Source: a virus
DNA: 64,000 nucleotides
IMG/VR virus record: IMGVR_UViG_3300025141_017118
Location: 38,121 to 102,120 of that record
Reading direction: 5' to 3' (one strand)
The notes beneath the pieces were generated by a model. It saw nothing but the letters and a program-made list of their open reading frames with translations, had not been told where the DNA came from and searched no databases. This document shows, piece after piece, positions 941-64,000 of this stretch (position 1 is its first letter; every line of letters starts with the position of its first letter). Made by a program: the position numbers and the translations under genes.

Positions 941-3900
941 TTACTGGAAGGTAACCCCTGCTTGATCAATAATGAAGTCCATGGCAATAAACTCTACGCT
1001 TCGCGTCGGTACCACAATAATTCTACCATTGAGGCGGTGATTTAAACGATCCGACTCTGTGTTGTTAGTGTCATCCATTACCACGCGGAACCTCTCAATG
1101 CCTTGTGCGGCCTGAATGGATGCAAGTATTGGTGTGACATTTGATACAAATCTTGAACGTACAGCAGGCGTATTTTGTTCAAATAACAACCTTCTGGCCA
1201 CATTAATTATCTGTCTCTTAAGCTCAAGTAACATTCTACGAACGTTAACCCTGTCTAGGGCCGACGGCGTGGCTTGTAGGTTTTTCTGTCCGAAGATAAC
1301 AAACCCTGGATTATTATTTGATCCCGCCGTTGGTAAGGTTGCAATGGGGTTGATACGACCTTCGTAAAGTGTATCGCGATCCGATGCAGCCAATCTTAGC
1401 GTGGTGTTAGATACACTTGCTAGTGACCCTCTAGAAAAGCCTGCAGGAGCAAACCATGGGCTTTGCATTCTGTCATTTAATCCTAACGCGCCCAATACAG
1501 CAGTTGATGCCGGCTGGCGAACTATCCTTCCGGTCTGGGGGTCAGCTGCAAAGACATCCGGGAAATATGTAGCAACATAATTGTTGTCTATATTTTTCAT
1601 TTCCAGCTCTAGGGTAGTTTGTTTTACCTGAGGTCTTTCGACTGAGTCTGCATATAGCCTACGACCATTTTCATCATACCCGGGAATATCCATTATATAG
1701 ATGGCTAGCCCATACTCTCTGACCAGGTCACTTACAGTATCAGTAACAAGATCACTTCGTATACCCGGTACCGCCAGGATATTAATCATCGACTGGTACT
1801 TATTTGTCATTATACGAGATGCAAAGTTATATGCCGTTATATTCTGGTTTTTATTTCCGGTACCCGCAGGATTTGTTGTTCCATTTGTCTGCGTTCCCAG
1901 TCCAGTATCGCTATAGTCAGTAGCAGCTTTACCTCCGGAAAGGTCCGCGGAGGAAGCACGATCATTCATGAAAAATTGATCTTTATCCAGAATATTCAGG
2001 CCGTCGAAACCACCATAGAAAATATTCGTGAACTTTGCATATGAACTAAATCTATTCCACACCGCAGAAGATGTTGCAAACAGCGTAGCGAACGTTATTC
2101 TACTAAGGCCGGTTGCATTAGGATCAAGGATAGTCCCGTCCGTTGTACTTACCACCCCATTTCGAATGTACGCGGCTTCTTTCATCTCAGTTTTGAGTGC
2201 GCCTGTTAAGAATGATATATGCCCAGCAGTATCCAGTTGGGTCCTTAGAGCGACGCGTGACAATGAAAACTTGTTATTATTGAAGACGTCTGCGCCCGTA
2301 CCCGTAACCAAGGTATCCATTTTTTTGATACCCACAAACTTCGTATAGGCATCCACAATTCGATTAAGCGTTGCCCCCGCGTTGGGTTGTAAGACTGTAT
2401 TATTCAGCCCGGTTTCAACCTGCGAAGAAGATGCAACTAGTAAAGTATTTTGAACCCCCCAATAAAGGTTTTTATTGGCACGCTCATCAGCACCAGCCTG
2501 GCCAACCCATGTAGGATTGTCTTGAAGCGCGCCCTTTGTGCACTTAAACCTAAATGGTAGTGGAGGTACAATTCCAAATCGTAACCTGCGTGCGATTGAC
2601 CTAGTTGTTGAAGCCCCATCATCTGGATCGGCGCTAGCGCCCATGGCGCCACTAGACCAGAGTCGTGGTAGTTTGTTCGCGGTCTCGGCTCCGTCTAGAT
2701 TTGTTTGGCCAAGGGCAACACCATTATAACTCAACACAGAACCTGAAAGGTCTGTCAACGAGTTTGTGGTTTTTAAAGTTGGTACTCCCCGGAAACCAAA
2801 TACACCAGCAGACTCTGGAACGTCACCATTCTTAAGTTGCTTACTTAACTGAACCCTTACATACGCGGACTTGACTGGCCACTGTCCTGTGACAATAATG
2901 TTTTTCTCATCCTCATACTCGGAGTCAAAATTAACCTTGTACTTGATGTCACCTATTCTTTTTCCGACATAATTTGAACTTCGCGGGTCTAAATTACACT
3001 CCGTAAAGGATTCTAAGATCACTCTTTTCTTATCCGTATCCGTAAATTTACGAATCTCCACATCAAATGAAGGATAAGGATATGAAGGATCAGCAGATTT
3101 CCTTAGATTACTAATTGATGCCTTAAACTTATCATTTGCATGAGCTCCGTCATCTAAAGCCTCGAGGTAAAATAGGTCCCACTCTGTTCCAGCGTAAGGT
3201 TGCGAAATAAACATTGTTGTGCGTGGTGACGTATACCTAGCATCAAACCTTCCATATGCCTGCAGAAACTCTGAAGGAGATATTTCACCACTAGTATTAC
3301 TATGGGCCTTACTCCCCGAACAAAGTGCAACCGAACCGGTAATAGGGCTTAGCCTACAAATATTATGATCTACTGGCCAGTGTGCATAAAGAAGGTGAGA
3401 TTCCTCCTGAAACTTGAGAGGATCAGTATTAAGAACATTTGAAAGGTAGTTGATGTTTGAAGGATCAAGGGACGCAGTTAGAACTCTTAAGCCGGTAAGG
3501 CCTGAAGGCGCTGTTCCAAAATTCTGTGTAGAACTAGAAATAACTAGTTTGAAACCCTTTCTTGTCCCTTCTCTATTGATAAAGCTTGAACCGGCCGTGG
3601 TGAAATCACCAAAGGGTGTTGCCTGATCGCCATAGGCCGCGTCGGTCCAGTTTCTTCCGCTGGTGGGGCCACCAACATTTGGCTGGGGATATCTAGACGT
3701 TCCGGCAAAGGCGCCGTTATCACCATCTAGAAGCTGTAGCCTGGTTCCCGTAGCTACCAAAATCATAGCTCTCGTTAGAACCAGACCGCTAGCGGATTTT
3801 TGAGAGTGAGCAGCTTCCTGCAAGTTTGCTAAAACGCTAACTGGAAAACTATCATTCTGAGTAAACATTGGAAACCCAATGCCCTCTTGTGAACCTGATA

Positions 3901-4354
3901 TCTCATGAAGCGCGTTGATAAATGTAACGGCACCTACTGCGCCTCCTGGGACGGAGGAGTTAAATGCCGGAGCACCTGGAACGGAGCTGGCCTTGCCAGA
4001 AATCTCAGAACCGGATAACCTGAACCCAGCGTTCCTAACGGTTCCCTGTCGAGCTGTAGTAAGAAAATCTGCAGCCGAATTATTGGAACCAGCGCCTAAA
4101 ACTCTCATGTAGGTGCACGCTTGTTGCGTCTTCAAGTACTCTGCCAGGGCATAAGGCCCCGCCATGTGTTGGTTTAAATCACCGAAAGTCTTAATAAAAT
4201 CATCAAGACTGGCCACGGTGACTGGAATAAATGCGGGGCCCCGCTGGGCAACACCAATCACACCTGCGGGTGTGCCTTGCGGTGATGTTGTCGGAAGCCC
4301 TATATCAACTTCGCGGGGATAAAAACCCGGGGATTTAAATGTTTGCTCAGCCAT
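941..4354 (-). CDS. Tail sheath protein (T4 gp18-like), 1137 aa with large insertion domains
   Basis: N-terminal SPG..PREVD/GPAF motif; C-terminal sheath signature PWFAPAGFSRG, INPI, IFGQKNLQ...SALDRVNVRRML, P.RSVEFIAMDF; AAGGAG SD. Confidence 0.95.
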   Translation of the reverse strand: MAEQTFKSPGFYPREVDIGLPTTSPQGTPAGVIGVAQRGPAFIPVTVASLDDFIKTFGDLNQHMAGPYALAEYLKTQQACTYMRVLGAGSNNSAADFLTTARQGTVRNAGFRLSGSEISGKASSVPGAPAFNSSVPGGAVGAVTFINALHEISGSQEGIGFPMFTQNDSFPVSVLANLQEAAHSQKSASGLVLTRAMILVATGTRLQLLDGDNGAFAGTSRYPQPNVGGPTSGRNWTDAAYGDQATPFGDFTTAGSSFINREGTRKGFKLVISSSTQNFGTAPSGLTGLRVLTASLDPSNINYLSNVLNTDPLKFQEESHLLYAHWPVDHNICRLSPITGSVALCSGSKAHSNTSGEISPSEFLQAYGRFDARYTSPRTTMFISQPYAGTEWDLFYLEALDDGAHANDKFKASISNLRKSADPSYPYPSFDVEIRKFTDTDKKRVILESFTECNLDPRSSNYVGKRIGDIKYKVNFDSEYEDEKNIIVTGQWPVKSAYVRVQLSKQLKNGDVPESAGVFGFRGVPTLKTTNSLTDLSGSVLSYNGVALGQTNLDGAETANKLPRLWSSGAMGASADPDDGASTTRSIARRLRFGIVPPLPFRFKCTKGALQDNPTWVGQAGADERANKNLYWGVQNTLLVASSSQVETGLNNTVLQPNAGATLNRIVDAYTKFVGIKKMDTLVTGTGADVFNNNKFSLSRVALRTQLDTAGHISFLTGALKTEMKEAAYIRNGVVSTTDGTILDPNATGLSRITFATLFATSSAVWNRFSSYAKFTNIFYGGFDGLNILDKDQFFMNDRASSADLSGGKAATDYSDTGLGTQTNGTTNPAGTGNKNQNITAYNFASRIMTNKYQSMINILAVPGIRSDLVTDTVSDLVREYGLAIYIMDIPGYDENGRRLYADSVERPQVKQTTLELEMKNIDNNYVATYFPDVFAADPQTGRIVRQPASTAVLGALGLNDRMQSPWFAPAGFSRGSLASVSNTTLRLAASDRDTLYEGRINPIATLPTAGSNNNPGFVIFGQKNLQATPSALDRVNVRRMLLELKRQIINVARRLLFEQNTPAVRSRFVSNVTPILASIQAAQGIERFRVVMDDTNNTESDRLNHRLNGRIIVVPTRSVEFIAMDFIIDQAGVTFQ

Positions 4355-4388
4355 TCACTAGTCTCCTTGGACTTAACTCTTTACTGAA

Positions 4389-4396
4389 ATAAGTAT
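4389..4396 (-). promoter_or_regulatory. Candidate late promoter element (ATACTTAT)
   Basis: Recurring motif ~35 nt upstream of the sheath-1 start. Confidence 0.45.
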
Positions 4397-4442
4397 AACG
4401 TCCATAACTTAAAATACCGACCCTTATCGCCGAATATTGTGT

Positions 4443-5795
4443 TTACATATCTAAATTTTCTAAAAACTCAAAATCAGTGTTAATTTTCCCAGTATTGGGA
4501 TCCTTAAAAATTGTTTCTCCCTTGCGTGTAGATGCTCGTGCCTTCAACGGATCCTTGTACTTTTTACCGGTAAACGGATCAGTCAAAATTTTAGGAGAGG
4601 ATACTAAACTTTTGCCGGCAACTGCACCTCCCACATTCACTGTCTTATGATTATTCACGGCGACGCCCTTTTTCAAGTTTGCATCGAAAGATGATGCTAT
4701 GGCGTGACCACCACCTATTGCATCTGCAGGATAGTCACTATCCCACTCGTCTAAATCATCTAAAATATATTTTGATGGATCACCACTTGGTGGGCCATTT
4801 ACTACCGTCTGCTGCAAGTCATTTTTATTTTCTATAATTTCAAATACAACGTCTGGAGAAGTAGTAAACGACCTGAATGGTACCGGGGCACCGGTAAAAT
4901 CAGGATTGATAATATACCCTGGAACTTCTGCATTGAAACTATACCTAACAAGCCTCTCGTTGTCGGCAAAGTCATCAAAATTTGTAGCAGATGTTATATC
5001 GGCATTCACATAGGCGACAAACCAATATCCTTTATCACTCTCTATGCGAAATGTACGCTGATTATTATCCTGGTATGAACTCATTAATGCCATCATCATT
5101 TCATTCATCTGTTGTGTATACTGGGCCCAGAAAGTCACTTCATAAGTAACAGTAAAAAACTTCGTAGGCGGAATAGTGATAATTTCATAAATATTTCGCC
5201 CAATATTATTGCGTAGAAGCTGGCCCTGGCGGGCCCTTAAACCAACTACCGGTTGGCGGCGGCGGGTGCCCACGGTCCCAGGCTTTGTGCTATAGGACTG
5301 TATCGAACCTGATGCCGCTGTATACATTCCGGGATCACGAAGAACATGTGTGGGACTTGCAACATTATCCTGATTTTTTAGACCATCCTTGTTTAATATG
5401 CGTTGATAGTTCACATCATCTTTGCTCAAACGCTTCTTAATTACCATAGGTGCATTCTGTCCTGGCATTGAGCCCTTCGTAGAATCTTGGGTAACTGTCG
5501 TTCTCATCATTGATATTAAGGGAAGAATAAGCGCGCCACTATTGTCACGGAGCGGGCGCTTTCTACGGAGTATAGCAAATCTCTCACCAGTAGCAAAAAT
5601 AACCGGGATCCTCCGGGTATCTTTTTGAAGCTTATAAAAGAATGGAATCTCCTCATTAAAAAGATTAAAAAATGCCCTATCGATATCTTCAATGGTACAT
5701 GAGGGTAAACTAAAGTCATCAGGAACATTAGTTCCCTCTAGGCCGGTGGGAACAGATACGTCGTCTGATATTGTTTTTGTATACCTGGTTGACAT
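4443..5795 (-). CDS. Putative tail completion/terminator protein (T4 gp15-like)
   Basis: Position between neck genes and sheath; motifs IPVIFATGERF, LILPLISMMRT, VTYEVTFWAQYTQQMNEM resemble tail-terminator family proteins. Confidence 0.6.
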   Translation of the reverse strand: MSTRYTKTISDDVSVPTGLEGTNVPDDFSLPSCTIEDIDRAFFNLFNEEIPFFYKLQKDTRRIPVIFATGERFAILRRKRPLRDNSGALILPLISMMRTTVTQDSTKGSMPGQNAPMVIKKRLSKDDVNYQRILNKDGLKNQDNVASPTHVLRDPGMYTAASGSIQSYSTKPGTVGTRRRQPVVGLRARQGQLLRNNIGRNIYEIITIPPTKFFTVTYEVTFWAQYTQQMNEMMMALMSSYQDNNQRTFRIESDKGYWFVAYVNADITSATNFDDFADNERLVRYSFNAEVPGYIINPDFTGAPVPFRSFTTSPDVVFEIIENKNDLQQTVVNGPPSGDPSKYILDDLDEWDSDYPADAIGGGHAIASSFDANLKKGVAVNNHKTVNVGGAVAGKSLVSSPKILTDPFTGKKYKDPLKARASTRKGETIFKDPNTGKINTDFEFLENLDM

Positions 5796-5805
5796 TTCTT
5801 ATCTC

Positions 5806-6489
5806 CTAGGAGTCCGAGTAGAATGCAGAATCGATCGTGCCTATCTCATTCTCGCTTCCGGTTCCGCCTTTCTCTGAAACTTCTGCAGGACCGCTTATTG
5901 GTTTAGTTAATACGTCTTTCTTTTGTAATGATCGAACATCACCTGTTGGGCCTTCTGCATTTTCGGCAAATCCACGTTGCTGGATAAACGTCTCTTGCAC
6001 TGCGTCCTTCTCAGAATACTCTTCGCCTAATGGCCCTATAGGATTCTTATCAATCTGTCCAATCCTGGCCTGTTTGCCTATTATTTTTATTCCAGTTGTA
6101 TGCTCAATTTGCCCATATATCTGGCTCTGTTCTAGGACAGACGTAATCTCAAAAAAAGTTGTTCCATAACTAAAATAATCACCCGCCTCTATTAATAATT
6201 CTTTATCTATCATGTCACGATACTGAATGTAAGCAGTTATAGAGTAATAATACTCCATACCAAACTCATTAGTTCGTACATCGGACTCTTCCCATTCAAC
6301 GCTTGAATCAATTTCTGTTGGTGGATCAAAAACCTTGTCTATAGATTCTTCATAGATATCATGAATAGCAGACAGGTCTTCTCTGGCCTTATAGAAATAG
6401 ATCTTTTGACCGATTACATCCTTTATCAGTTCTTTATTTGTGTCCGCGATAAAGTCAATTTCGCGTGGTGTTATAAACAGTCTTGCCAC
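5806..6489 (-). CDS. Putative neck/head-closure protein (T4 gp14-like)
   Basis: GTG start; GQKIYFY...DIYEE...F.PP.EI...FG...GDYF..G..FFEI pattern; sits between the gp13-like and gp15-like genes. Confidence 0.6.
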   Translation of the reverse strand: MARLFITPREIDFIADTNKELIKDVIGQKIYFYKAREDLSAIHDIYEESIDKVFDPPTEIDSSVEWEESDVRTNEFGMEYYYSITAYIQYRDMIDKELLIEAGDYFSYGTTFFEITSVLEQSQIYGQIEHTTGIKIIGKQARIGQIDKNPIGPLGEEYSEKDAVQETFIQQRGFAENAEGPTGDVRSLQKKDVLTKPISGPAEVSEKGGTGSENEIGTIDSAFYSDS

Positions 6490-6499
6490 TACCTACCCC

Positions 6500-7696
6500 T
6501 TATCCCATAATAATTGCTTTACCATTTGGAACTGGAATATTTCTTAATATTCTCGTCATAGCCTCAGACTGATCCGCCTGCTTTGAAATGAGGTTTCCAT
6601 ACGTCATTCCTTCTAAAGTTTCTCTCAGGCTTGTCTTTAACGCTTCTTTTTCTTCCCGACCACCGGATACTAAATCATCACCATTTAGGGTTAGATCAGC
6701 ATTGGGTATGGGGATTGTAGAAAACTTTGATCTTACAAGACCTAAAAGCTCCTTACAACATGCTAGTGTATATTGACGGATCCACTGTCGTCCTATGCTG
6801 TTTATCTTGTCAAATGCAAGATTGCCATATGGAATATTTGATAAATTACTTACCCCATATATGCTTGAATCTTTAAACGCCGGCCGAAAGGGATCGTTAG
6901 TAAATCCAACCCTTATCCATAGCTTTCTAGGATCATCATGTGTTGGTTTAGGGTATAACCTTATTTGGGTACCAAAAGTGCGAAATGAATAGTTCGAACG
7001 CCTCACACGATTAGATAGATCCAACTGGCCCGCCCTTAAGACATCTTCAAATACCGGCAGAACATAAAATACTGTCTCTGGTGTAAATGACTCAAAGCTA
7101 AATTCGTTGTTCAGGTAATTAATTGCCGATGTTGTATCAAAAAACCTATATGCGGCCTGGGGACTAAAATGGAAGACCTCCATTATCTTAAGTCGGCTTC
7201 TCCTGTTGGAGGGTTGTGAATTGAATATATTGTTTCCATCACCATCCACCAAGTCTTCATAGATATCATAGTCTTGGATATTTTTCTTTAGTGAAATAGA
7301 GCCAGAGATAGTATCATAAGATCCTCCTATGGAAGCCTCACTAGCATATGGCTCTGCCTGCCTGTTAAGGAACTCCATTGTTTCCCTAGGGAGCATACTT
7401 TCATATCCGTGTGGACCAATATTAAAGGAACCTGATACGGAACTACCCGTAGGAAACCCCATCAGATTCATCAAATTGGATTCCGCCTGGTACCTATTGA
7501 TAACTGCCCCATATTCCATTAGGGACTCTTCAAAGCATGCCCAGATCTGTTTTTTCGTTAATTCAACCGATAAAATATCATCGCCCAGCTTTCTCTTTAC
7601 ATAGACGACCATAGAATCGGCCTCTGTCTGGAAAGCTGCGTCTGCGTTAAAAAAACCAAAAGGCGTCGGGTTTAGTGTGTTCGCAAAAGTCGGCAC
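6500..7696 (-). CDS. Putative neck/head-tail adaptor protein (T4 gp13-like)
   Basis: RKLG...SVELTKKQI, WIRQYTLA.CKELLG.VRSKF..IP.....LNG.DL...G.EE motifs typical of gp13-like neck proteins; GTG start with GGGAG. Confidence 0.7.
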   Translation of the reverse strand: MPTFANTLNPTPFGFFNADAAFQTEADSMVVYVKRKLGDDILSVELTKKQIWACFEESLMEYGAVINRYQAESNLMNLMGFPTGSSVSGSFNIGPHGYESMLPRETMEFLNRQAEPYASEASIGGSYDTISGSISLKKNIQDYDIYEDLVDGDGNNIFNSQPSNRRSRLKIMEVFHFSPQAAYRFFDTTSAINYLNNEFSFESFTPETVFYVLPVFEDVLRAGQLDLSNRVRRSNYSFRTFGTQIRLYPKPTHDDPRKLWIRVGFTNDPFRPAFKDSSIYGVSNLSNIPYGNLAFDKINSIGRQWIRQYTLACCKELLGLVRSKFSTIPIPNADLTLNGDDLVSGGREEKEALKTSLRETLEGMTYGNLISKQADQSEAMTRILRNIPVPNGKAIIMG

Positions 7697-7737
7697 GAAT
7701 ATTCTCCCTAACTAGAATTCAAACAAAGCTCAGTGTT

Positions 7738-7745
7738 ATAAATAG
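7738..7745 (-). promoter_or_regulatory. Candidate late promoter element (CTATTTAT)
   Basis: Recurring motif between the 7790-7823 terminator and the neck gene start (~42 nt upstream). Confidence 0.45.
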
Positions 7746-7789
7746 GCAAGTGATCTGTTGATTACTTGAACGAAATATATTTGTTGTAT

Positions 7790-7823
7790 AAAAAACAGAA
7801 GGGGCCCCATGAGGGGCCCCTTC
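7790..7823 (-). terminator. Rho-independent terminator
   Basis: Minus strand reads GAAGGGGCCCC-TCAT-GGGGCCCCTTC followed by TGTTTTTT, just downstream of the 170-aa gene. Confidence 0.85.
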
Positions 7824-7851
7824 CTTAAACTTTAAAAAATATTATTAAATT

Positions 7852-8364
7852 CTATTGCGGGCCCGGACCACCAGTTGCAATTCGATGTGATCCAGTCAGG
7901 CTATAGCAAAAATACCTACGACCATCGCTTACAACCTTAAGGCAGTCGCCTTCACTGTTTCCTAACTGAATACGCTGGCCAGCAAGGACACCCCCCGGGG
8001 CGGATTGTGAGCCGGATGCCCAATAAAATAAGTCAAGGATCGCATCGCTGGTTGATCCAGAAATGACATTGCACCCTGACTTTCCTTTTTGGGCAACACC
8101 ACCCCCCGACTTGCGGGAACCACCTGCTCTAAAATAAAACTCCTGACCGGTAGCTGATGCTACCGCTGGTAGTCTTGCCATGGCACCCGTGCCTGTGTTC
8201 TGACCACCATCACCTGTGCCTGATAGTATCGTAAACGCAGTGCATGATCCTGTCGTCCCACCATTGATTTGTGACGTCCTTAACTTTGGACTGTGTTCTA
8301 ACTCAAAACCACGTCCTCGGGACTGAACGAGGCCTTTGTCATTCGTAATAGTAACCTTAGGCAT
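7852..8364 (-). CDS. Small Gly/Ser-rich putative virion (head decoration/fibre) protein
   Basis: AAGGAG SD, own terminator, located between capsid and neck genes; 6 [ST]G[ST] motifs in 170 aa. Function is inferred. Confidence 0.5.
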   Translation of the reverse strand: MPKVTITNDKGLVQSRGRGFELEHSPKLRTSQINGGTTGSCTAFTILSGTGDGGQNTGTGAMARLPAVASATGQEFYFRAGGSRKSGGGVAQKGKSGCNVISGSTSDAILDLFYWASGSQSAPGGVLAGQRIQLGNSEGDCLKVVSDGRRYFCYSLTGSHRIATGGPGPQ

Positions 8365-9568: not shown

Positions 9569-9604
9569 AAAAAAAAAGGGGATACCCATATGGGTATCCC
9601 CTTT
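9569..9604 (-). terminator. Rho-independent terminator after the major capsid gene
   Basis: Perfect 30-bp palindrome AAAGGGGATACCCAT|ATGGGTATCCCCTTT (9575-9604) with a T9 run on the minus strand, ~20 nt after the MCP stop. Confidence 0.9.
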
Positions 9605-9623
9605 CGAACTAACCTAATCTATA

Positions 9624-11582
9624 TTAGATAATGTTCAAGTCGAGCACTGTAACAGTACCGTAGAAGTCGGAACGAACCATCTTCTTACCGTAGCGAGTCA
9701 TGACACCCTTACGCGGGGTGAAGTCATCTGGCTGGAAGATAGTCGGCGTTACGATGAGAGGCACATACGGAGCGTAGACATAGCCTGTCTCCAGATAGCT
9801 ACCACCCTTGTATCCAACAAGAACCTTATTCCGTGGGAAGTAAGGATCCTTGTAGACCGTAAAGCGATTGCTAAGTGTACCAATCTTCTCAGCGCCGAGT
9901 GACATCGGAGCACTTACCTGGCCTTCACCATCAAGGGTGTAGGACGGACGGTAAAGAACCGAAGCCTCAAGAATCGTTGCAATATCGGGTGAAACCACGA
10001 CAAAGTTTGCCGAGCCACGCAATGTTAAGCGGTGAATCTCATTAGCGACATCAATGATTGTCTCAGTAAGGGTCTCATACCACTCGCGGACTGTACCGGT
10101 GAAGGCCGGTCCAGGAGCCAATGTATCAGACTTGCTGACCTCAGTACCTGTCTCACGATTGACAAACTTACCAGGGGCACGTGACCAGTAGCGACGTGTC
10201 TTAGCTTGTACCAGAAGATCATTAAGAACCTCACGGTCAATCTCTAGAGCAATCTGCTCTGAAAGGATTTGAGTAAGCTCAACCTCAGCATCTAAACTAT
10301 GGTATGCATTCAAGTCCTGAGCAAGTTCTGGTGACCATCGTGCACGCAACTTACGTGTAACGGCGGTAACAGCAACAGACTCAATCTTGATATCAATCTC
10401 AGGAATAACCGGAGAAGGAGTAGCACCAAAATTAGACTCAAACGAAGGAATCGTAAGAGTTGAACCATCAGCATCCACATCGAGTGTAGAAGCAATTGGA
10501 GCACTTATGTTGAGCTGCTGAAGGCTGGTTACGAACGAGCTATCCTGTACAGTACCAGTAACAACTGCCATGAAACAAGCATTTGCAGTGGCCTTTGTAA
10601 CCATAGGATCAGCAGTAAAGACGCCGGCCGTGAATGTACCAAGCTGGTTCAAACGACGGATATTGACGATATTCTGACCACCCTGCATTGTCTGTGGTAC
10701 CACACCAACACCTGCAGAACTTGGTGAGTTCTGTGATGTTACACCTGGAACGACTGGGCCTGTATTAAGAGCCCACTCCTGAACCTGTGTAAGATCGTAT
10801 TGAGCGAATGCCGAACTACCCAACGCAAAGAATACAGCCTGGAATCGACCATCGTTAGATTGATTTGGGTCACCTTCAATAAGTGTTGTAACCTGCGGGT
10901 CAAACTGAATAAGCTTGCCATCAGTACCGGTAGCAACAAGAAGGCCACCATCCTGAATTGTGGTACCGCCAACATTACCAACGGAACCAGAAGCAAGGAT
11001 CTTCACCGGTGCAGTCTCAGCACCGACCACACCATTTAGTGCGGAGCCACTGTGTACCTTTGTGAAGCCCTGACCTACAAGATCATAAAGACCACCGGCA
11101 CCCAATGAACCAGAACGAATTCCCTTACCTGCGGGGTTATTATAAATGGAAGAACCGGATGCATATACCTCAACCTTATCACTAATGGTTGTATCAGAAG
11201 TATATGACTCACGGGAACCATATGTGTAATCCAAGTAGAAAAGCAGGCCAGAAGGCAAGCTCATCGGCTGGATGGAAACGAGCTCGTTAGCAACGAGACC
11301 GCCAAAGACCCGACGAACGATCGGGAAAGCAATATTTGTGAAGCCCTGCAAGTCACCGGAGCGAGCACCTAAGCCCCCACCAGTACCTACTGAATTTGCT
11401 TCACGAAGAAGTTGTCCTGCTTGGTTCTCCAATAGACGTGACATGTTCTCACGATGAGTGCCGTCCATGCCTCTCAGGAGTCCCGTACGAGACCACTTCT
11501 CCACAAGCCGACGGTTTTGCGTACCCAAGTGACGGGAACGAATACCTTCAGTCAGCGATTCAAGTGAAAAAGATTTTGACAT
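9624..11582 (-). CDS. Major capsid protein (T4 gp23-like) with large insertion domain
   Basis: FPIVRRVF...LVSIQPM..PSGLLFYL, V.A.TRKLRARWSPELAQDLNAYHSLDAEVEL..ILS.QI.LEIDRE, YAPYVPL, F.PRKGVMTRYG; AGGAG SD. Confidence 0.96.
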   Translation of the reverse strand: MSKSFSLESLTEGIRSRHLGTQNRRLVEKWSRTGLLRGMDGTHRENMSRLLENQAGQLLREANSVGTGGGLGARSGDLQGFTNIAFPIVRRVFGGLVANELVSIQPMSLPSGLLFYLDYTYGSRESYTSDTTISDKVEVYASGSSIYNNPAGKGIRSGSLGAGGLYDLVGQGFTKVHSGSALNGVVGAETAPVKILASGSVGNVGGTTIQDGGLLVATGTDGKLIQFDPQVTTLIEGDPNQSNDGRFQAVFFALGSSAFAQYDLTQVQEWALNTGPVVPGVTSQNSPSSAGVGVVPQTMQGGQNIVNIRRLNQLGTFTAGVFTADPMVTKATANACFMAVVTGTVQDSSFVTSLQQLNISAPIASTLDVDADGSTLTIPSFESNFGATPSPVIPEIDIKIESVAVTAVTRKLRARWSPELAQDLNAYHSLDAEVELTQILSEQIALEIDREVLNDLLVQAKTRRYWSRAPGKFVNRETGTEVSKSDTLAPGPAFTGTVREWYETLTETIIDVANEIHRLTLRGSANFVVVSPDIATILEASVLYRPSYTLDGEGQVSAPMSLGAEKIGTLSNRFTVYKDPYFPRNKVLVGYKGGSYLETGYVYAPYVPLIVTPTIFQPDDFTPRKGVMTRYGKKMVRSDFYGTVTVLDLNII

Positions 11583-33219: not shown

Positions 33220-33239
33220 TCAATTCTCCTATCATGATG

Positions 33240-33247
33240 ATAAATAG
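33240..33247 (-). promoter_or_regulatory. Candidate late promoter element (CTATTTAT)
   Basis: Recurring motif ~21 nt upstream of 33219. Confidence 0.45.
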
Positions 33248-33295
33248 TAACTCACATAATATTTTCATAAACTTATTTTTACATAAAAAAATATC

Positions 33296-35320: not shown

Positions 35321-35332
35321 AAGTTAACTCTC

Positions 35333-40843: not shown

Positions 40844-40846
40844 GCC

Positions 40847-43510: not shown

Positions 43511-43514
43511 ATCA

Positions 43515-48410: not shown

Positions 48411-49342
48411 TACTTTAACCATCCCCCAAATGCTAGTGAATCTGTACCCTCTGGATTATGACCATATGTGAAACCAGCAGTCGACGACTTGTGATCAAAC
48501 GGAAGCAGACTATTTTCACTAGAACCCGTCAATTGATATAACACTTCTTTCATTTCGAAATCATGATCTCCATAGTCTGCCCACTTATATTCTTTTTTTG
48601 ATATGTCAACAAAGGGCGTGAATTTCCCTAGTCTAAAATCAATATTTCCGGGTAAGGGTAAAGAAGATGTAAGAAATACATTCTGACTATCGAAAAATGG
48701 TACCGTCACAGGAGCTTCATTTTTTCCATTATAAATAAACTGACTTATTTTTGTGTTATTACGCAACGTCAGTGTATACATAGAAGAGATTGATGCCTTA
48801 ATAGTATGTGGATAAAACTTTGAACCGCTAAGCTGTCCCTGGAGATCACCGCGGCGGTCGATAAACCTTCGAATAGTCAACGGTTCGATCACACCATCCA
48901 TTTGCCCATCTTGTACTAGTGACGTATAAAAAACGGGGTTGGGATAAGAAGGAATTGAACCAGCCGTCATATCACGTAATGTCGAGCCTGAAGAGTAGCC
49001 CACCTGATCAACAAAGGGAGTCTCTTCATTAAACTCATATGACTGGCCATGGATTGTTTGCAACAGGCCATGGGAGACCCGGGATTCTAGAGCACTTGGT
49101 GAACCCAAGCTAGATGGGATTCCAAGTGCCGTATCCGGAAGGGCATCATCAAAAAACTTGTTAGGATCGCCATAACTTCCAGACTGGCGTAATACAATAG
49201 AATCTTCACTCCATATCTGCGGAACGTTGGCTGAATAAAATGTGTGCTTAACCTGTGTTATCGATACGCCCTGACGAAACATAGAAATTGTGCCACTTAA
49301 GGTGGCTTGCATTGTTTTTCTAGTCTTTCTATTAGAGCTCAT
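48410..49342 (-). CDS. Putative virion structural protein
   Basis: 310-aa ORF coupled to the LamG gene; repeated PF.D motifs and 5 [ST]G[ST] motifs. Confidence 0.55.
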   Translation of the reverse strand: MSSNRKTRKTMQATLSGTISMFRQGVSITQVKHTFYSANVPQIWSEDSIVLRQSGSYGDPNKFFDDALPDTALGIPSSLGSPSALESRVSHGLLQTIHGQSYEFNEETPFVDQVGYSSGSTLRDMTAGSIPSYPNPVFYTSLVQDGQMDGVIEPLTIRRFIDRRGDLQGQLSGSKFYPHTIKASISSMYTLTLRNNTKISQFIYNGKNEAPVTVPFFDSQNVFLTSSLPLPGNIDFRLGKFTPFVDISKKEYKWADYGDHDFEMKEVLYQLTGSSENSLLPFDHKSSTAGFTYGHNPEGTDSLAFGGWLK

Positions 49343-54802: not shown

Positions 54803-56662
54803 CTATGATGCATGCCCAATAATATCAAAATCAGGATATTTCATTTCAAATATTGCGCCAGAGGGGGGGATTATAAGGCCCCTTCGACTGTTGCTCTTAA
54901 TATCGAATGAATAGTCACTATACCTACGATCCTCATTATCCTTATATAAATTAAAGACAACGGGTTGTTTAGCTAGTGCTATAACACCCTCAGTGTTGAT
55001 AATAATATTTGTTATGTCCGCGTTTATTATTGGTTGCCCTATTTGAAAATTCTCAAGTGACATAAGTTCTGTCAAATTATTGATCACCCCTTGAATGACT
55101 GCATTTTTGTTTGCCGTGGGGTGGGTTACGATAAAAAACTCTATCCCAATATTTATTACCGGTGCATCAACAATATCAACGGCATCAGAAATAAGGCGAA
55201 ATTCGTTTAGATATTTTCTAAGGTTTTTCTTTAATGCGTCAGGTGCTATAATTAGATTTGCATCTGAATCCATGCAGATGAGATGCATTATCGCAGCCAT
55301 AGGATTATTGGGATTATTTGAAATTGAAGCGCGGTAAACTCTTCCATAGTTCGCTGGCATGGTGTACACTCTTGCTAAAAGATCTTGTGCACTGACAATC
55401 CTCGACTGCATCTGTTTCATTGCCGGCACTTTCGCCTTTAATTCCTCTAGTGTAGGTGCTTCCGTACCGCCACCCGTAGGCGACGAATTTGTGACCTCTA
55501 TCGTCTGTCTTAACATTTCGACCTCAGATGCAGATAACTTTCCAGGAAAGCGTATGTTCAACACGTTAATGGATTCTATTGAGTTAACTGCCAGGTTGTG
55601 AGAAATACCTCCCCCATGCCGATATCTTACAGAAATTACAGTATTTTTTGGAGCTATACCCAGTGTTTGTGTCCCTAAAATGTCATTGGGATCTATTGAG
55701 AATCGAGGAAATGTTTTCTTTCCATAAAGAGGTAATGATAACTCACTAGGATCTGGTATTATGTCATTGTCTAAGACGTTTTCATCTCCAGAACCAAATT
55801 GTATTGAGGTTAGCCTTGTTGATGGATCTACCAAATTTAAAAACCTATATGGCGCTGGAATTATCTCCATATGGGTTTCAACCAGGTGATTATCATCATC
55901 TAAGTTTGGTGTACCACCAAATACAACATTCTGCGTTAACGATGAGACCTCATAATACTTGTTTCTATTAGCATCACTTACCTCCATTATCTCAGTAATA
56001 TCCGTATTTGACAGTGTTATCTGTCTAAATGGTTCATGAATGTCTGATATTATAAATTGTTCTGTTGTCTCTTCACCAGAAACAATCGTTCCCTCTAGAG
56101 ATACTATATAATAGAATGGGTTTGCGGCACCTGTGGCATTTACACTAGACACAAAAATTTCAACACTGGCCAATAGCTCATCTGCTGGGGACGTCTTCGT
56201 AAAGTCCAGTTCTTCTATCAGATTATATATGACGCCGGAAGATGAACTAAACGTCGTGCCCAAGCCTATTATCGGTAAAAATCTTCTATCAGGAACACTT
56301 TCACCCTGCACTGTCGTAGCTGGAACCTTTATAGACACTTTCATGGTTCCCACCGCAGGTGACACTGTTGTAATGGGTACCCCGGCTTCTCGTAAGTGAC
56401 GAAGGATATTTACATGTTCGATTGCAGTAGATGGAAAAAGCTCATTGAACTGATGGTCTAAATAAAATGACATTGAATCGCCAATAAACGCAGCCATATC
56501 AACGAATAGGCCCCCTAATGAGGCCTCAGAAAAATCCTGAATCTTGTCAGGAAAATACGTCCGTGCATAGGATATAAGTTCTTTTCGAAATGAATCAAAG
56601 TCTCTTGCGAGGTATGACTTGTTTCTTACTTTCTTTAATTGTTTCTGTATATCTTTTGGCAT
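54803..56662 (-). CDS. Baseplate wedge subunit (T4 gp6 / P2 gpJ-like)
   Basis: RDFDSFRKELI.Y....FP....DF.E.SLG...DM.AF.GD..SFYLD, IQFGSG, GGTEAPTLEELK...Q.RIVS.QD. Confidence 0.88.
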   Translation of the reverse strand: MPKDIQKQLKKVRNKSYLARDFDSFRKELISYARTYFPDKIQDFSEASLGGLFVDMAAFIGDSMSFYLDHQFNELFPSTAIEHVNILRHLREAGVPITTVSPAVGTMKVSIKVPATTVQGESVPDRRFLPIIGLGTTFSSSSGVIYNLIEELDFTKTSPADELLASVEIFVSSVNATGAANPFYYIVSLEGTIVSGEETTEQFIISDIHEPFRQITLSNTDITEIMEVSDANRNKYYEVSSLTQNVVFGGTPNLDDDNHLVETHMEIIPAPYRFLNLVDPSTRLTSIQFGSGDENVLDNDIIPDPSELSLPLYGKKTFPRFSIDPNDILGTQTLGIAPKNTVISVRYRHGGGISHNLAVNSIESINVLNIRFPGKLSASEVEMLRQTIEVTNSSPTGGGTEAPTLEELKAKVPAMKQMQSRIVSAQDLLARVYTMPANYGRVYRASISNNPNNPMAAIMHLICMDSDANLIIAPDALKKNLRKYLNEFRLISDAVDIVDAPVINIGIEFFIVTHPTANKNAVIQGVINNLTELMSLENFQIGQPIINADITNIIINTEGVIALAKQPVVFNLYKDNEDRRYSDYSFDIKSNSRRGLIIPPSGAIFEMKYPDFDIIGHAS

Positions 56663-56664: not shown

Positions 56665-57159
56665 TTATCCTATAGTATCTATGATTACCTCAATCGCGCC
56701 TGTTTCATCACCATAGCCCTCAACGGTAAATGTAACCTGGACACCGATTTGAATCACCTGCTGGTCTTCATCGGGGCCACGTCGAAATGTTGAAAAGCCA
56801 GATAAGTTTACATATGGCATATATTTTGCTACGGCGTTAGATATTTGTGTCATTGCCCGGGCATCCGTATCAGAGTTTGTAAGCTCTGTGCTCAACCACT
56901 TTAGATTTCCACCGAAATCATACAGCCCTAATCTCTCACCCCAGTTTGTTAGAATTAAATTTCGTAAATTATCCGACACTTGCCTAAACAAGGTCGTATG
57001 CATCTGAAATAAGCCTTGTTCATTCCCAAATTCCACCGGAGTCTTTATCCCAATTGGAACAACATCGATTGCAGTAGTAACACCGACTTCTTCATTAATA
57101 TACTCAGCCATGTCCTGGCCTACTGACTTAAAGTCGTATGTCTTTTGGATCTGTTTCAT
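56665..57159 (-). CDS. Baseplate gp25-like (sheath initiator) protein
   Basis: QVSDNLRNLILTNWGERLGLYDFGGNL...I..AVAKYMPYV; adjacent to the gp6-like wedge. Confidence 0.88.
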   Translation of the reverse strand: MKQIQKTYDFKSVGQDMAEYINEEVGVTTAIDVVPIGIKTPVEFGNEQGLFQMHTTLFRQVSDNLRNLILTNWGERLGLYDFGGNLKWLSTELTNSDTDARAMTQISNAVAKYMPYVNLSGFSTFRRGPDEDQQVIQIGVQVTFTVEGYGDETGAIEVIIDTIG

Positions 57160-57184
57160 CTATCTTTTACTCCAGCACACATGG

Positions 57185-57192
57185 ATAAATAT
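57185..57192 (-). promoter_or_regulatory. Candidate late promoter element (ATATTTAT)
   Basis: Recurring motif ~26 nt upstream of the gp25-like gene heading the baseplate unit. Confidence 0.45.
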
Positions 57193-57272
57193 GTCCGTGA
57201 TTAATTCTATACTGAAGTAAATTATAAGATAATTACAAAAATAATATATGGTGTTTATCAGGTTGGTGAAAA

Positions 57273-61579: not shown

Positions 61580-61585
61580 AATTGC

Positions 61586-62749
61586 TTACTCCAAATAGTG
61601 CCCTATGGTCTCTTCATAGTTTGCGTTTATTGCTTCTTGCTTATACAGGGGTACAAGCTTTTCCTTAAGATCTTCAGCCCACTTGGTAGGTGCTGAATTG
61701 CCTTTATAAAACTTTCTCAATCTTTTCTTCGCGTCATCTTCGCGCGGTTCAGCCCACCTGGAACCCTTTATAAAGATAACATTGTCGATACGTGTTGGAT
61801 CAATATCAACCATATCATATTCTACCCCTATAAACTTTCCCTTTCCGAGGAAGTCTAGATGTCCAGACCACGAAGTAGCAATAACGGGTAGGCCGGAACA
61901 TGTTGCCTCAAGTAGAGGAAGACCGTAACCCTCACCCCTTGTTAGCGATACTAGCGCCTTTATCTTGGGATGCCTATACAGGCTAGCCATTTCTTCTTGT
62001 GTCATCGTACCATGTAACAGATGGAATTTGGGATATTTTCCTGGACGGACCTCTTTTAAAACAGAGCTGAATGTATTCAACGTTACTTGCTTGTCTATCT
62101 TTGTGTTACGGCCGCTATTCGTCTTAAGGACAATACCTACGTCCTTATCATCCTTAAATTCTTCGCACAACCACTTAAGAGTATAAAACAGGTTCTTTCT
62201 ATCATTTTTAGGATTATTGCCTGTTAGTTGTCCTACCACTAAAAAGTTAAAATCCGTGCTTAATTCTAAATCAAGGGATTCTAATTCACCATCAACAATC
62301 TGTTCATAAATTGCCTCCGGGACAACATCTAAAGGCTTACTGACATATCCTGTGTTCTCAAGACAGCGCTTCGCGTGGGTGGAAGGAACAATAACATGAT
62401 CCATATCATTACATGCGTGGACCCAGCTGCCATTGCACCTGTCAGTCTCCACAACCGCTGACATTCCAATATTTGTTCTGGCTAGGTTGGGATCCCATTC
62501 ATTGGGTAGTTGAAGTTGTATGGAAACATCAAACCCTCCTTCAGGAGGGGGATTTGAACGGCGCATAATTTCACCAATCAAACCATTTTCAAGATCTGGA
62601 TTAACCATCCAGCTAGTCATTCCCCATGGAACAATACCAACGTGAAGATCTATATTTTTTTTAGTTAAAAGATATTTGAAAACCTGTCGTGAGTGGGTAC
62701 CATATCCTGAATAACTTAAAAGGGGCGCTCTTAAAATAACTTTTTTCAT
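61586..62749 (-). CDS. Glycosyltransferase, GT-B fold (GT4-like)
   Basis: SGYGTHSR N-terminal loop, RKNL, GEGYGLPLLEATCSGLPVIAT.WSGH.DF (EX7E motif). Confidence 0.92.
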   Translation of the reverse strand: MKKVILRAPLLSYSGYGTHSRQVFKYLLTKKNIDLHVGIVPWGMTSWMVNPDLENGLIGEIMRRSNPPPEGGFDVSIQLQLPNEWDPNLARTNIGMSAVVETDRCNGSWVHACNDMDHVIVPSTHAKRCLENTGYVSKPLDVVPEAIYEQIVDGELESLDLELSTDFNFLVVGQLTGNNPKNDRKNLFYTLKWLCEEFKDDKDVGIVLKTNSGRNTKIDKQVTLNTFSSVLKEVRPGKYPKFHLLHGTMTQEEMASLYRHPKIKALVSLTRGEGYGLPLLEATCSGLPVIATSWSGHLDFLGKGKFIGVEYDMVDIDPTRIDNVIFIKGSRWAEPREDDAKKRLRKFYKGNSAPTKWAEDLKEKLVPLYKQEAINANYEETIGHYLE

Positions 62750-62758
62750 TACTTTTTC

Positions 62759-64000
62759 CTATAGGGTTGTGCAGTTCCATGGCTCATATCTAGATCTCCA
62801 ATTTTCATGGAGCTCAGTCAAAGTCTCATCCCATCTGGTGACGACATCATTCAGATTAAATTCAGAGTCCACATACTCTAACACTTTTTTACTTAACTTT
62901 TCTCTTTCGTCAGGAGACAATTCATATAATTTCATTATCCCCTTTGCTGTCGTCTCATTTGAACAATAATCTTCATAGATATAGGGAACCTGTTGTGAGC
63001 CAACGAGACTCTTAAGCTCTACGGGAAGTGCAACGCCATTTTCCGTACCATCGCGGTGATCAACAACCTGTCTGGTAAGACCACCGGTTTGCACGGCAAT
63101 AATTGGGTTTCCTGTCTGCATAGACTCTAGGGTTGAAAGGCCGAAGCCTTCAGCATAACTTATTTGTATACATGTATCAGTGATGTTGTGAAGGAGATTC
63201 ATGTGATCAAAGGAGACCCTCTCGGTTGAAAATACAACATTATCCTTTATTCCCAACATCTCAACAGCGCTAAGCAGATTAGGGCCCTCTTGGTCCAGTG
63301 GATCTGTATGCATTAACAATGTAGCTTTTTTGTGGCCGTGCTGTTCTTCAAGCATATCAAGAAATAATTTCCATGATTCCAAGACATCATTCGGACGTTT
63401 TCGCCTGGCATTCCTATTAACCCATAATGCAACGAAATGGTCAAGTCGCTCTTTACCCAAAAACTGTTCTCTAAATTTCATTTTTTCGTGTGCCGGTAAT
63501 GGAAAAAACGTATCTTTGGGTAATGCATGTGGAATAAAATTTGTTCGCTCTGGTACTATTTCTTTACACATTCGGTATGTCAAGTGAGAATGACAATTAA
63601 TTAAATCTGTTGACTCATAGAGAACTTTATTAAATTCTGGAACGGGATAATTATCCCAAACATGCCAGTACGCAATGGGACATACCTGGTGGATTTCATC
63701 TTCCATCTCCCACAACCAAATAAAAAAGCGTGGATCCGTAAATATTAGTATTAAATCCGGGCGTTCGGTAGCTAGTGCCAGCCTAATCGTATCCCGATCA
63801 CCGAATCCATCAATTGGTTTAATAATAAAATCATCATTGACCACAACGGTTTCGTAATTATCATGTTTAATTGCAGCGCCGAATTGTCTTACGGTCCATT
63901 TTCCTGTCTTTATAAGACCCTCTGCAAGATATCTACTCTGACAACCGACACCAGACGTACATAGCGCGTGGTCTGACAATAACAATATTTTCTTCTTCAT
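62759..64000 (-). CDS. Glycosyltransferase, GT-B fold (GT4-like)
   Basis: ILLLSDH...SGVG, NRNARRK, AEGFGLSTLESMQTGNPIIA..TGG (EX7E motif); ATG at the last base of the window. Confidence 0.92.
   Translation of the reverse strand: MKKKILLLSDHALCTSGVGCQSRYLAEGLIKTGKWTVRQFGAAIKHDNYETVVVNDDFIIKPIDGFGDRDTIRLALATERPDLILIFTDPRFFIWLWEMEDEIHQVCPIAYWHVWDNYPVPEFNKVLYESTDLINCHSHLTYRMCKEIVPERTNFIPHALPKDTFFPLPAHEKMKFREQFLGKERLDHFVALWVNRNARRKRPNDVLESWKLFLDMLEEQHGHKKATLLMHTDPLDQEGPNLLSAVEMLGIKDNVVFSTERVSFDHMNLLHNITDTCIQISYAEGFGLSTLESMQTGNPIIAVQTGGLTRQVVDHRDGTENGVALPVELKSLVGSQQVPYIYEDYCSNETTAKGIMKLYELSPDEREKLSKKVLEYVDSEFNLNDVVTRWDETLTELHENWRSRYEPWNCTTL

Follow-up and report, generated by a model that had tools for sequence, protein, structure and literature searches.

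Why do the outward-facing proteins of an uncultured T4-like phage carry the tripeptide [S/T]-G-[S/T] so often, and could this tripeptide be the acceptor site of glycosyltransferases (GTs) that the phage itself encodes? The question is raised by a 64,000-nucleotide stretch of viral DNA (IMG/VR record IMGVR_UViG_3300025141_017118; the window), which corresponds to bases 3424-67423 of a 72.3-kb viral contig, the latter being meant wherever contig coordinates are given, and which, judging from profile matches, is the structural half of an uncultured T4-like jumbo myovirus. A preliminary description of the window had proposed that the tripeptide is the acceptor sequon for a dense, possibly O-methylated glycan coat. 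The analysis reported here found the motif about three to six times as often as expected by chance in those proteins of head, sheath, neck, baseplate and fibres that face outward, both in this phage and in its whole clade, and tentatively favours reading it as a candidate sequon for glycosylation of the phage's own virion proteins by a tandem pair of GT4-type enzymes, GT1 and GT2.

Enrichment of the tripeptide in the window

An unselected test comprising all 43 open reading frames (ORFs) of at least 100 amino acids (aa), each shuffled within the protein, gave 90 occurrences of [ST]G[ST] against 36.6 expected (z 9.1), so that the enrichment noticed in the preliminary description holds against composition-preserving shuffles. 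A scan of all 8000 tripeptides ranked SGS first, TGS 26th and TGT 30th, and among the forms [ST]x[ST] glycine is the only residue enriched at x (2.46-fold). With classes assigned by homology alone, the outer virion proteins contained 55 sites against 15.2 expected (z 10.3; none of 2000 shuffles reached 55), while the inner virion and assembly proteins (1 against 2.5) and the enzymes (4 against 2.8) were at expectation. The permuted form G[ST]G (7 against 9.3 expected), the Bacteroidota O-glycosylation sequon D[ST][AILVMT] (33 against 27.9, z 1.0) and N-x-S/T (75 against 74.6) were not enriched.

The hand counts with which the proposal had begun proved exact for the major capsid protein (MCP), the tail sheath, the neck protein, the 170-, 310-, 420- and 531-aa proteins (the last with seven additional [ST]A[ST]) and the 1158- and 1281-aa LamG proteins; the individual counts are listed in the next section. 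This positive set holds 67 sites in 6057 aa, or 11.1 per 1000, and the accompanying negative set of enzymes, portal, scaffold and the like has five sites, in 4354 aa. Likewise correct were the proportions of [ST]G dipeptides followed by S/T, namely 8 of 14 in the MCP, 8 of 13 in the 531-aa protein and 2 of 23 in the 1836-aa protein. The positive set had been chosen post hoc, and part of the tripeptide excess derives from an excess of dipeptides (39.3 expected when dipeptides are taken into account, 19 by plain shuffles), both of which would fit an artefact of proteins rich in Ser, Thr and Gly; against this, the dipeptide-aware comparison leaves a smaller yet clear excess (73 observed against 39.3), the unselected scan includes every ORF and places SGS first, G[ST]G is flat, and over 100 orthologues as well as eight other genomes show the excess again. 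The explanation by statistical or compositional artefact is thus refuted by the shuffle and scan results.

The 90 sites are encoded by 75 distinct 9-mers with ordinary codon usage, so the motif is a feature of the proteins, and an explanation by a DNA motif was rejected. Apart from the sheath paralogues and one C-terminal stretch, the motif-bearing proteins have no mutual BLAST similarity; an excess common to unrelated proteins argues for a cause acting in trans rather than for one shuffled domain, and the latter explanation was rejected at the sensitivity of BLAST. The surroundings of the motif are asymmetric, with hydrophobic residues at position -1 in 55% of sites (background 32%) and at +1 in 49%, further hydrophobic preference at -2 and -4, and depletion of charged residues upstream. 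The form with hydrophobic flanks is enriched 6.5-fold (39 against 6.0), and from these sequence counts the motif appears to be best written as hydrophobic-[S/T]-G-[S/T]-hydrophobic.

Motif sites in individual virion proteins

The proteins concerned, all encoded on the minus strand, are given below with observed and expected numbers of sites; the last two lines are an internal control and a motif-poor block.

941-4354, minus strand: tail sheath, 1137 aa (Phage_sheath_1C), 7 sites against 2.8, p 0.017
6500-7696, minus strand: neck or head-tail adaptor-like protein, 398 aa (phrog_211), 3 sites against 0.6
7852-8364, minus strand: Gly/Ser/Thr-rich protein, 170 aa, 6 sites against 1.2, p 0.001
9624-11582, minus strand: MCP of gp23 type, 652 aa (PF07068, E 3e-78), 8 sites against 2.1
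28478-31198, minus strand: LamG-domain protein, 906 aa (PF13385), 4 sites against 1.6 (homologue in the related genome G001, 14 against 2.9)
31229-32491, minus strand: tail or fibre protein, 420 aa, 5 sites against 1.25, p 0.0085
43515-44912, minus strand: protein of 465 aa, 2 sites against 0.5 (homologue in G001, 4 against 0.93)
44946-48422, minus strand: LamG-domain protein, 1158 aa (PF13385), 11 sites against 3.3, p 0.001
48410-49342, minus strand: protein of 310 aa, 5 sites against 1.1
49350-53195, minus strand: LamG-domain protein, 1281 aa (PF13385), 14 sites against 3.6, p 0.0005
53200-54795, minus strand: baseplate-periphery protein, 531 aa, with a weak DNRLRE-like N-terminus, 8 sites against 1.3
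54803-56662, minus strand: Baseplate J (gp6-like) protein, 619 aa, 0 sites against 0.73
33296-43525, minus strand: proteins of 674, 1836 and 892 aa, 0, 2 and 0 sites against 1.0, 2.9 and 1.4

All seven sheath sites are in the non-core domains (residues 101-700; 1.84 expected), the conserved N- and C-terminal core having none (1.0 expected), and 31 orthologues have a mean of 6.3 sites against 2.5. The 1137-aa sheath (window 941-4354, contig 4364-7777) has a tandem paralogue of 1148 aa (window 2-901, contig 884-4327); the two are 32% identical over the first ~215 residues, and two sheath genes are also found in G001 and locus L238. The neck protein has a mean of 2.7 sites against 0.6 in 46 orthologues. 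The 170-aa protein matched no family in Pfam or PHROGs and has no orthologue in the related loci centred on the MCP.

Five of the eight MCP sites are inside a lineage-specific insertion (residues 142-218). Across 74 orthologues of 62-69% identity the mean is 5.1 sites against 2.1, with sites 157, 218 and 495 kept in 93-100% and the others variable, and the sites of the window MCP are not common to the MCPs of vB_FspM_immuto (immuto, a Flavobacterium phage), Microcystis phage Mel-JY01, Rhodothermus phage RM378 and T4. An AlphaFold2 model of the MCP was poor (33-row alignment, mean pLDDT 49, pTM 0.41), with moderate confidence in residues 190-350, and was otherwise left unused.

Among the tail and fibre proteins, homologues of the 420-aa protein in G001, G003-G006, immuto and Mel-JY01 have 4-7 sites against 0.8-1.6 expected. 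The 1158-aa LamG protein keeps 5 of its 11 sites at 34% identity and the 310-aa protein 4 of 5 in an orthologue at 29% identity, and at 44% identity 8-9 sites of the 1281-aa LamG protein are kept while 4-6 are new.

The 531-aa protein is the most informative about turnover. Its 36 orthologues (36-72% identity) have 3-12 sites (mean 7.0) against ~1.5 expected; 50-65% of them retain the main sites, and the motif occurs, in at least one sequence each, in 39 alignment columns. In homologues at only 26-28% identity, from four other complete genomes and Mel-JY01, 6-10 sites were counted against 0.65-2.2 expected, of which 1-4 are at positions used in the window. Within the family the first S/T remains S/T in ~80% of cases and Gly is kept in ~71%, being mostly replaced by Ser; such replacement with the first S/T retained would be unusual for a turn that depends on Gly. 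The excess is a trait of the clade, and the number of motifs is kept down to ~25% identity although most positions change.

An AlphaFold2 model of the 531-aa protein (pLDDT 83, pTM 0.82) is a string of beta-sandwich domains for which Foldseek returned Ig, FN3 and CBM-like arrays. Mapped onto this model, the eight sites occupy mixed settings: two are in loops, one each at the end and at the start of a strand, one in a two-residue hairpin, one each at a strand-helix and a helix-strand junction, and one inside a strand. They therefore do not represent one structural idiom.

Baseplate J, portal, terminase and prohead protease have 0-2 sites in every relative examined. The class of outer proteins as a whole carries the motif as had been claimed, but the claim does not extend to the 33296-43525 block; nor do 3-14 sites per protein, with three large fibre-like proteins almost free of sites, imply the dense coat that had been envisaged. 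In the block, S/T follows [ST]G in 0 of 10 cases in the 892-aa protein and 0 of 8 in the 674-aa protein. The 892-aa protein gave only weak FN3-like leads in the ESM Atlas. The 1836-aa protein (35333-40843, minus strand) is an orphan, its sole match among 5.8 billion clustered proteins being itself, and a search of the ESM Atlas gave no usable match for it; records of it exist for three contigs of up to 139 kb, so that a longer assembly of the phage probably exists. G001 has a homologue of the 674-aa protein at 29% identity, and none was found there for the 1836- or 892-aa protein.

The GT1-GT2 pair and associated sugar genes

The sugar-related genes of the window are the following.

62759-64000, minus strand: GT1, GT4-type (Glycos_transf_1), 413 aa; PF00534, 45 bits against a cut-off of 26.4; phrog_2170
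61586-62749, minus strand: GT2, GT4-type, 387 aa, always directly downstream of GT1; PF00534, 34 bits against 26.4; phrog_2170
19998-21335, minus strand: NanM-type putative sugar O-methyltransferase, 445 aa, accessory; TIGR04371, 99.6 bits against a cut-off of 44

The two GT4-like enzymes recognized in the preliminary description do belong to CAZy GT4 / Glycos_transf_1. The EX7E motif has the consensus AEGFGLxTLES in 25 GT1 orthologues and GEGFGLPxLEA in 25 GT2 orthologues, and GT1 itself has no [ST]G[ST] site (0.26 expected). B736L of chlorovirus NY-2A is the best relative of known structure for GT1 over the full length (3OY2, E 8.8e-14) and also for GT2 (E 1e-4). In a prediction of the GT1-GT2 complex the ipSAE was 0.89, against 0.00 for the best of three controls, contacts agreed to at least 96% between runs and partner pLDDT was at least 92; 58 of 80 solved complexes reach the mark applied to such scores, as do 2 of 110 mismatched pairs. 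GT1 and GT2 are accordingly a predicted heterodimer, though the score may owe something to solved GT-B heterocomplexes.

Orthologues of GT1 occur in more than 587 IMG/VR contigs, of which 80 GT loci were fetched. The order PD-(D/E)XK nuclease-GT1-GT2 recurs across the GT loci inspected and in the near family continues into the baseplate operon. The nuclease immediately upstream of the pair (contig 68360-69181) is Cas4-like with a C-terminal Cys cluster, as seen on inspection of loci L177-L256, and a PD-(D/E)XK nuclease adjoins the pair also in immuto, Mel-JY01 and probably RM378.

The NanM-like sugar O-methyltransferase was likewise correctly recognized at the level of family; its gene is accessory and not clade-wide, with no homologue in 80 related MCP-centred loci or in G001. 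It sits at the junction of the terminase and portal genes, which is uninterrupted in the relatives examined, and so looks like a recent insertion into the head-gene block. Beyond the window, upstream of the GTs, the contig encodes a nucleoside diphosphate-sugar dehydrogenase, a DegT/PseC-type aminotransferase, a Gfo/Idh/MocA oxidoreductase and a KdsB-like cytidylyltransferase. Other sugar-related genes in the clade comprise at least five GT genes, aminotransferases and a methyltransferase in immuto and GT-A-type genes in Mel-JY01. GT1-GT2 is the only sugar-related element that was found in every enriched genome and is therefore the best candidate for the enzyme that would write on the motif.

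Distribution of the excess among related and unrelated phages

Genome-wide ratios of observed to expected [ST]G[ST] were calculated over ORFs of at least 150 aa, with the following results.

GT1-GT2 present, IMG/VR: this contig 2.42, G001 1.89, G003 1.78, G004 1.82, G005 1.92, G006 1.87
GT1-GT2 present, cultured: immuto 2.06, Mel-JY01 2.71 (partly collagen-like repeats), RM378 1.85
GT1-GT2 absent: T4 0.92, T5 0.97, crAss001 0.88, phiKZ 1.19, P-SSM2 1.25
GT1-GT2 absent: TJE1 1.24, Che8 1.62, LR756511 1.39, LR756508 1.48 (distant GT1 only)

The nine genomes with the pair (1.78-2.71) and the nine without it (0.88-1.62) do not overlap, and the number of ORFs significant at p < 0.01 is 5-12 in eight of the former, one in RM378 and 0-3 in the latter. 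Significant ORFs of the enriched genomes are virion proteins or adjoining unassigned ORFs; in immuto, the sheath has 11 sites and a 373-aa protein 13. The excess is absent from T4, T5, crAss001, phiKZ, P-SSM2 and LR756511, which lack the pair. The suggested co-occurrence of motif and GTs across genomes holds in so far as all nine genomes with the pair are enriched; since all of them belong to one T4-like subclade, it is not a replicated correlation.

Two of the counts are inflated for reasons of their own. Mel-JY01 (L090, 2-3049 and 9444-9983) encodes a 1016-aa collagen-like G-X-Y protein, X and Y being almost only Ser or Thr, with 140 matches to the motif, and immuto (L081, 21979-23616) encodes a 546-aa protein with six Ig-like repeats having conserved ISGTP and ATGTITV strings. 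An amino-acid habit of the host phylum was rejected as an explanation, given the ratio of 0.88 in the Bacteroides phage crAss001 and a clade that also infects a cyanobacterium and Rhodothermus. Tetrasphaera phage TJE1, with a distant GT1 homologue (23%) in a sugar cassette upstream of the terminase, was considered as an independent lineage and rejected, its ratio of 1.24 being no enrichment.

DNA as an alternative target

T-even phages glycosylate their DNA, and GT1-GT2 could do the same, the motif then being unrelated to them. In keeping with this, the pair always lies beside a PD-(D/E)XK nuclease and is located among replication genes in immuto, Mel-JY01 and RM378, and HHpred finds a resemblance to B736L in the alpha-GT of T4, likewise a GT-B enzyme (PMC6024577). 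The known pathways to phage DNA glycans, however, need either an enzyme of the thymidylate-synthase type or a C5-methyltransferase together with a TET-like dioxygenase (bioRxiv 10.1101/2023.12.21.572611; PMC13326640). No gene of the thymidylate-synthase family (PF00303), which would include a hydroxymethylase or 5hoC synthase, was found in seven relatives with the pair, namely Mel-JY01, RM378, G001, G003, G004, G005 and G007 (six of them complete genomes). A search for TET/JBP (PF12851) was empty, but as the control genomes were equally without a match it carries no weight. For a relative, rather than for the phage of the window, the nucleosides have been determined: liquid chromatography with ultraviolet detection and mass spectrometry of virion DNA of immuto_2-6A gave canonical dA, dC and dT and no sugar adduct, fdPreQ1 taking the place of G (bioRxiv 10.1101/2023.04.13.536721). 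Neither the alpha-GT nor the beta-GT of T4 is among the 50 PDB hits of the GT1 profile. With PF00303 missing from the relatives and the DNA of immuto free of sugar, action of the GTs on DNA, which had been named as a finding that would overturn the proposal, is regarded as very improbable.

Acceptor sequon, structural habit or another reader

An excess shared by unrelated outer proteins, the mixed structural settings of the sites, a conserved number with turnover of positions and the absence of the excess from virion proteins rich in beta-sandwiches in phages outside the clade point to a reader acting in trans. We infer that GT1-GT2 act on proteins and that the motif is their acceptor site, the modified residue and the nature of the glycan being part of the same inference. 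In the proposed mechanism the motif would be read by a trans-acting factor of the phage, the soluble GT4 pair. The two enzymes would work in the cytoplasm as a heterodimer, taking a sugar from a nucleotide sugar and attaching it to a Ser or Thr in the motif while the virion proteins fold or once they have folded. In the phage of the window the glycan might then be elaborated with products of its own sugar-nucleotide genes just beyond the window, and possibly O-methylated by the NanM-like enzyme. Sequon-directed glycosylation of the phage's own virion proteins by GT1-GT2 is considered plausible, short of probable. Its extension to the whole clade, as an O-glycan coat made by a heterodimeric GT4 enzyme at a hydrophobic-[S/T]-G-[S/T] sequon on folded outer proteins, with the number of sites selected and their positions turning over, is put forward with somewhat greater reserve.

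Several observations weigh against glycosylation by this pair. The block at 33296-43525, probably fibre-like proteins of the same operon, is almost free of the motif (2 sites against ~5.3). RM378 has the pair yet is weakly enriched, its MCP and sheath staying at background; nor is there enrichment in the MCPs of immuto and Mel-JY01, and LR756508, with a distant GT1 only, is near background. The Mann-Whitney comparison of ratios with and without the pair (p 4e-4) ignores phylogeny, and since all genomes with the pair form one T4-like subclade they amount effectively to one evolutionary event, in which motif and pair were perhaps inherited together. The sugar-nucleotide genes and the NanM-type methyltransferase are accessory in this phage and not clade-wide. 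Other relatives of GT1 are enzymes acting on small molecules or polysaccharides (BshA, MshA, TreT, sucrose-phosphate synthase), and with relatives of such mixed kind membership of GT4 gives no clue to the acceptor; even for B736L the acceptor is unassigned, and the enzyme may not act on the capsid (PMC9614988). The acceptor role originally proposed thus gains from an enrichment that is confined to outer proteins of unrelated sequence and conserved or replaced down to ~25% identity, and suffers from its restriction to one clade and from the weak case of RM378.

In a rival reading, the motif is a structural habit specific to the clade. Small-Gly-small tight turns or caps would follow hydrophobic strands in the beta-sandwich domains used for decoration and fibres, and would have been inherited and formed anew by drift or under selection for folding and stability; the GT pair would act on the host envelope, host proteins or a small-molecule glycoside. 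The hydrophobic flanks at -1 and +1 are as at strand-turn-strand junctions, [ST]GA (2.1-fold) and AG[ST] (1.7-fold) are also enriched, which fits a packing preference for small-Gly-small, and the 531-aa protein is made of beta-sandwich domains. Gly is the best-conserved position in the MCP family, where most of the excess comes from three or four near-fixed sites, among them 157, 218 and 495 with invariant Gly; part of the excess of immuto is a consensus of Ig-like repeats (ISGTP...ATGTITV) and part of that of Mel-JY01 is collagen-like G-X-Y. The confounding of motif and pair by shared ancestry and the small-molecule enzymes among the nearest GT4 relatives favour the same view. On the other hand, virion proteins rich in beta-sandwiches have no excess in T4 (Hoc 0 against 1.4, gp12 1 against 2.0, gp34 and gp37 at expectation), T5, crAss001 or phiKZ, and the FN3-like 892-aa protein of the same phage is motif-free. 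The mixed contexts, the frequent change of Gly to Ser with S/T kept and the turnover of positions at a steady count at ~25% identity also speak against it, and it offers no reason why the motif should be shared by outer proteins of unrelated sequence and by these only. A structural habit is therefore rated as unlikely, though it deserves serious attention.

The signature of a trans-acting reader is independent of which enzyme writes, and the motif may be functional with another reader or purpose, such as phosphorylation, acylation, another phage or host GT, or binding of a ligand such as host polysaccharide. Phages of the clade carry further GTs (immuto, Mel-JY01), so that the initiating enzyme need not be GT1-GT2. 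Profile searches revealed no kinase or other candidate writer in the 72-kb contig, and no sugar-related element other than GT1-GT2 is in every enriched genome; another reader is accordingly held to be improbable, less so than a target in DNA.

Identity of the phage and other features of the window

The 72.3-kb contig represents ~20% of a genome (CheckV), and all genes of the window are on the minus strand. Assignment to the T4-type myoviruses follows from matches to PF07068 (3e-78), PF07230 (4.5e-76), PF03237, PF03420 and PF17482, with PF04965 and PF04865 weak. Further genes of this type are given below, and the window also holds a primase gene and, as profile matches, the three LamG-domain proteins.

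16482-17090, minus strand: prohead protease, profile match
17948-19939, minus strand: gp20-type portal, profile match
21454-23052, minus strand: T4-type large terminase, profile match
56665-57159, minus strand: gp25-like protein, weak profile match

PHROGs gave no match for 17 of 20 submitted proteins, and Pfam none for most of the tail proteins. The closest cultured relatives are immuto (MCP 47%, GT1 33-40%) and Mel-JY01, with RM378 farther away. Close relatives in IMG/VR reach 255-257 kb at ~75% estimated completeness, which makes this a family of jumbo phages.

At 23756-26896 (minus strand) an SbcD-type metallophosphoesterase (residues 4-188) and an SbcC/Rad50-type SMC ATPase share a single ORF of 1046 aa, a gp47-gp46 fusion, with a full-length homologue in Mel-JY01 (29% identity over 1091 aa). 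Directly after the capsid gene (9571-9623), nine T follow a perfect GC-rich hairpin (GGGGATACCC-ATAT-GGGTATCCCC), an arrangement that resembles a strong intrinsic terminator. No intergenic gap of the contig contains the exact T4 late promoter box TATAAATA. GT1, the neck gene, the gene for a 238-aa protein and gp25 each have the string CTATTTAT 25-60 nt upstream, perhaps by chance in AT-rich DNA; the gaps examined for it include window 7697-7851, 33220-33295 and 57160-57272 and contig 67424-67492. As a putative shared element it is too short and AT-rich to carry weight.

Significance

To our knowledge, self-glycosylation of the phage particle is known experimentally only for a few actinobacteriophages, and an acceptor sequon is known for no phage. 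The literature searched describes no [S/T]-G-[S/T] sequon in phages. Were the proposed reading true, it would give tailed phages their first described system of sequon-directed protein glycosylation, and the number of sequons would be under selection with turnover of positions, as in the glycan shields of animal viruses. It would concern a very large aquatic T4-like clade (more than 587 IMG/VR contigs; hosts Flavobacterium, Microcystis and Rhodothermus), and virions bearing glycans would be frequent among the abundant phages of marine and fresh waters, with a bearing on adsorption, aggregation, resistance to proteases and grazers, and stickiness to polysaccharide. The "auxiliary" sugar genes of phages, usually assigned to modification of the host surface or of DNA, would need rereading, and a defined pair of soluble enzyme and sequon would be a useful tool for cytoplasmic glyco-engineering of proteins. 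The question is testable, as two members of the clade are in culture (vB_FspM_immuto and Mel-JY01) and the candidate sites are known to the residue.

Comparison with known systems

The Bacteroidota system with the sequon D-[S/T]-[A/I/L/V/M/T] is alike in having a three-residue O-glycosylation sequon and in belonging to the likely host phylum of part of the clade. It differs in acting outside the cytoplasm, its sequon is the one found without enrichment here, and the clade infects a cyanobacterium and Rhodothermus too.

The DNA glucosyltransferases of T-even phages and the more recently described DNA-glycan systems resemble GT1-GT2 as phage GT-B enzymes in T4-like genomes near genes of DNA metabolism, but depend on a hydroxylase or hydroxymethylase of the thymidylate-synthase type, or on a C5-methyltransferase with a TET-like dioxygenase; the seven relatives lack a gene of the thymidylate-synthase family, and the DNA of immuto carries no sugar.

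GtfA-GtfB (Gtf1-Gtf2) is the O-GlcNAc transferase complex for the serine-rich-repeat adhesins of streptococci and staphylococci. As there, where two tandem genes of GT-B fold encode a complex that starts Ser/Thr O-glycosylation in the cytoplasm, GT1 and GT2 are in tandem and are predicted from modelling to bind each other. GtfB, however, is non-catalytic, whereas GT2 keeps an EX7E-like motif, and the acceptors of GtfA-GtfB are long disordered Ser-rich repeats, whereas single tripeptides within folded domains are the candidate sites in this phage. Neither GtfA nor GtfB appears among the PDB hits of the GT1 and GT2 profiles.

Chlorovirus B736L, the best solved relative of both enzymes, offers the likeness of a soluble GT-B enzyme encoded by a virus. 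Its homologue in PBCV-1 is A546L (B736L being 3OY2/3OY7). The major capsid protein of chloroviruses is glycosylated at non-canonical sites by cytoplasmic enzymes that the viruses themselves encode (PMC9614988). These capsid glycans are N-linked, and chloroviruses are giant viruses of eukaryotes, not tailed phages.

The nearest functional parallel is found in mycobacteriophages (Che8, Corndog, Myrna), whose virions are O-glycosylated by phage GTs (Freeman et al., 2023, as cited in PMC12619734 and PMC13445384). Common to both would be soluble phage GTs, sometimes with a methyltransferase, that modify capsid and tail proteins of the phage itself in the cytoplasm, with shielding of the particle surface as the proposed role. 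The GT1 sequence found no match in the whole Che8 genome, which has a ratio of 1.62 and one ORF at p < 0.01; a 273-aa ORF in its capsid region (L118, 5051-5869), which may be the capsid subunit, ends in ...FNKTGS and so has the tripeptide at its extreme C-terminus, where glycans of the Che8 capsid are reported to lie, but this is a single case. For these mycobacteriophages the glycan is established on the virions. Mycobacteriophage glycans are reported at the C-termini of capsid and tail-tube subunits (PMC12619734), and no internal tripeptide sequon is described; unlike the Che8 type, the phage of the window has no site in its tail-tube-like protein, and its candidate sites are internal and distributed over at least 11 proteins of a T4-like myovirus.

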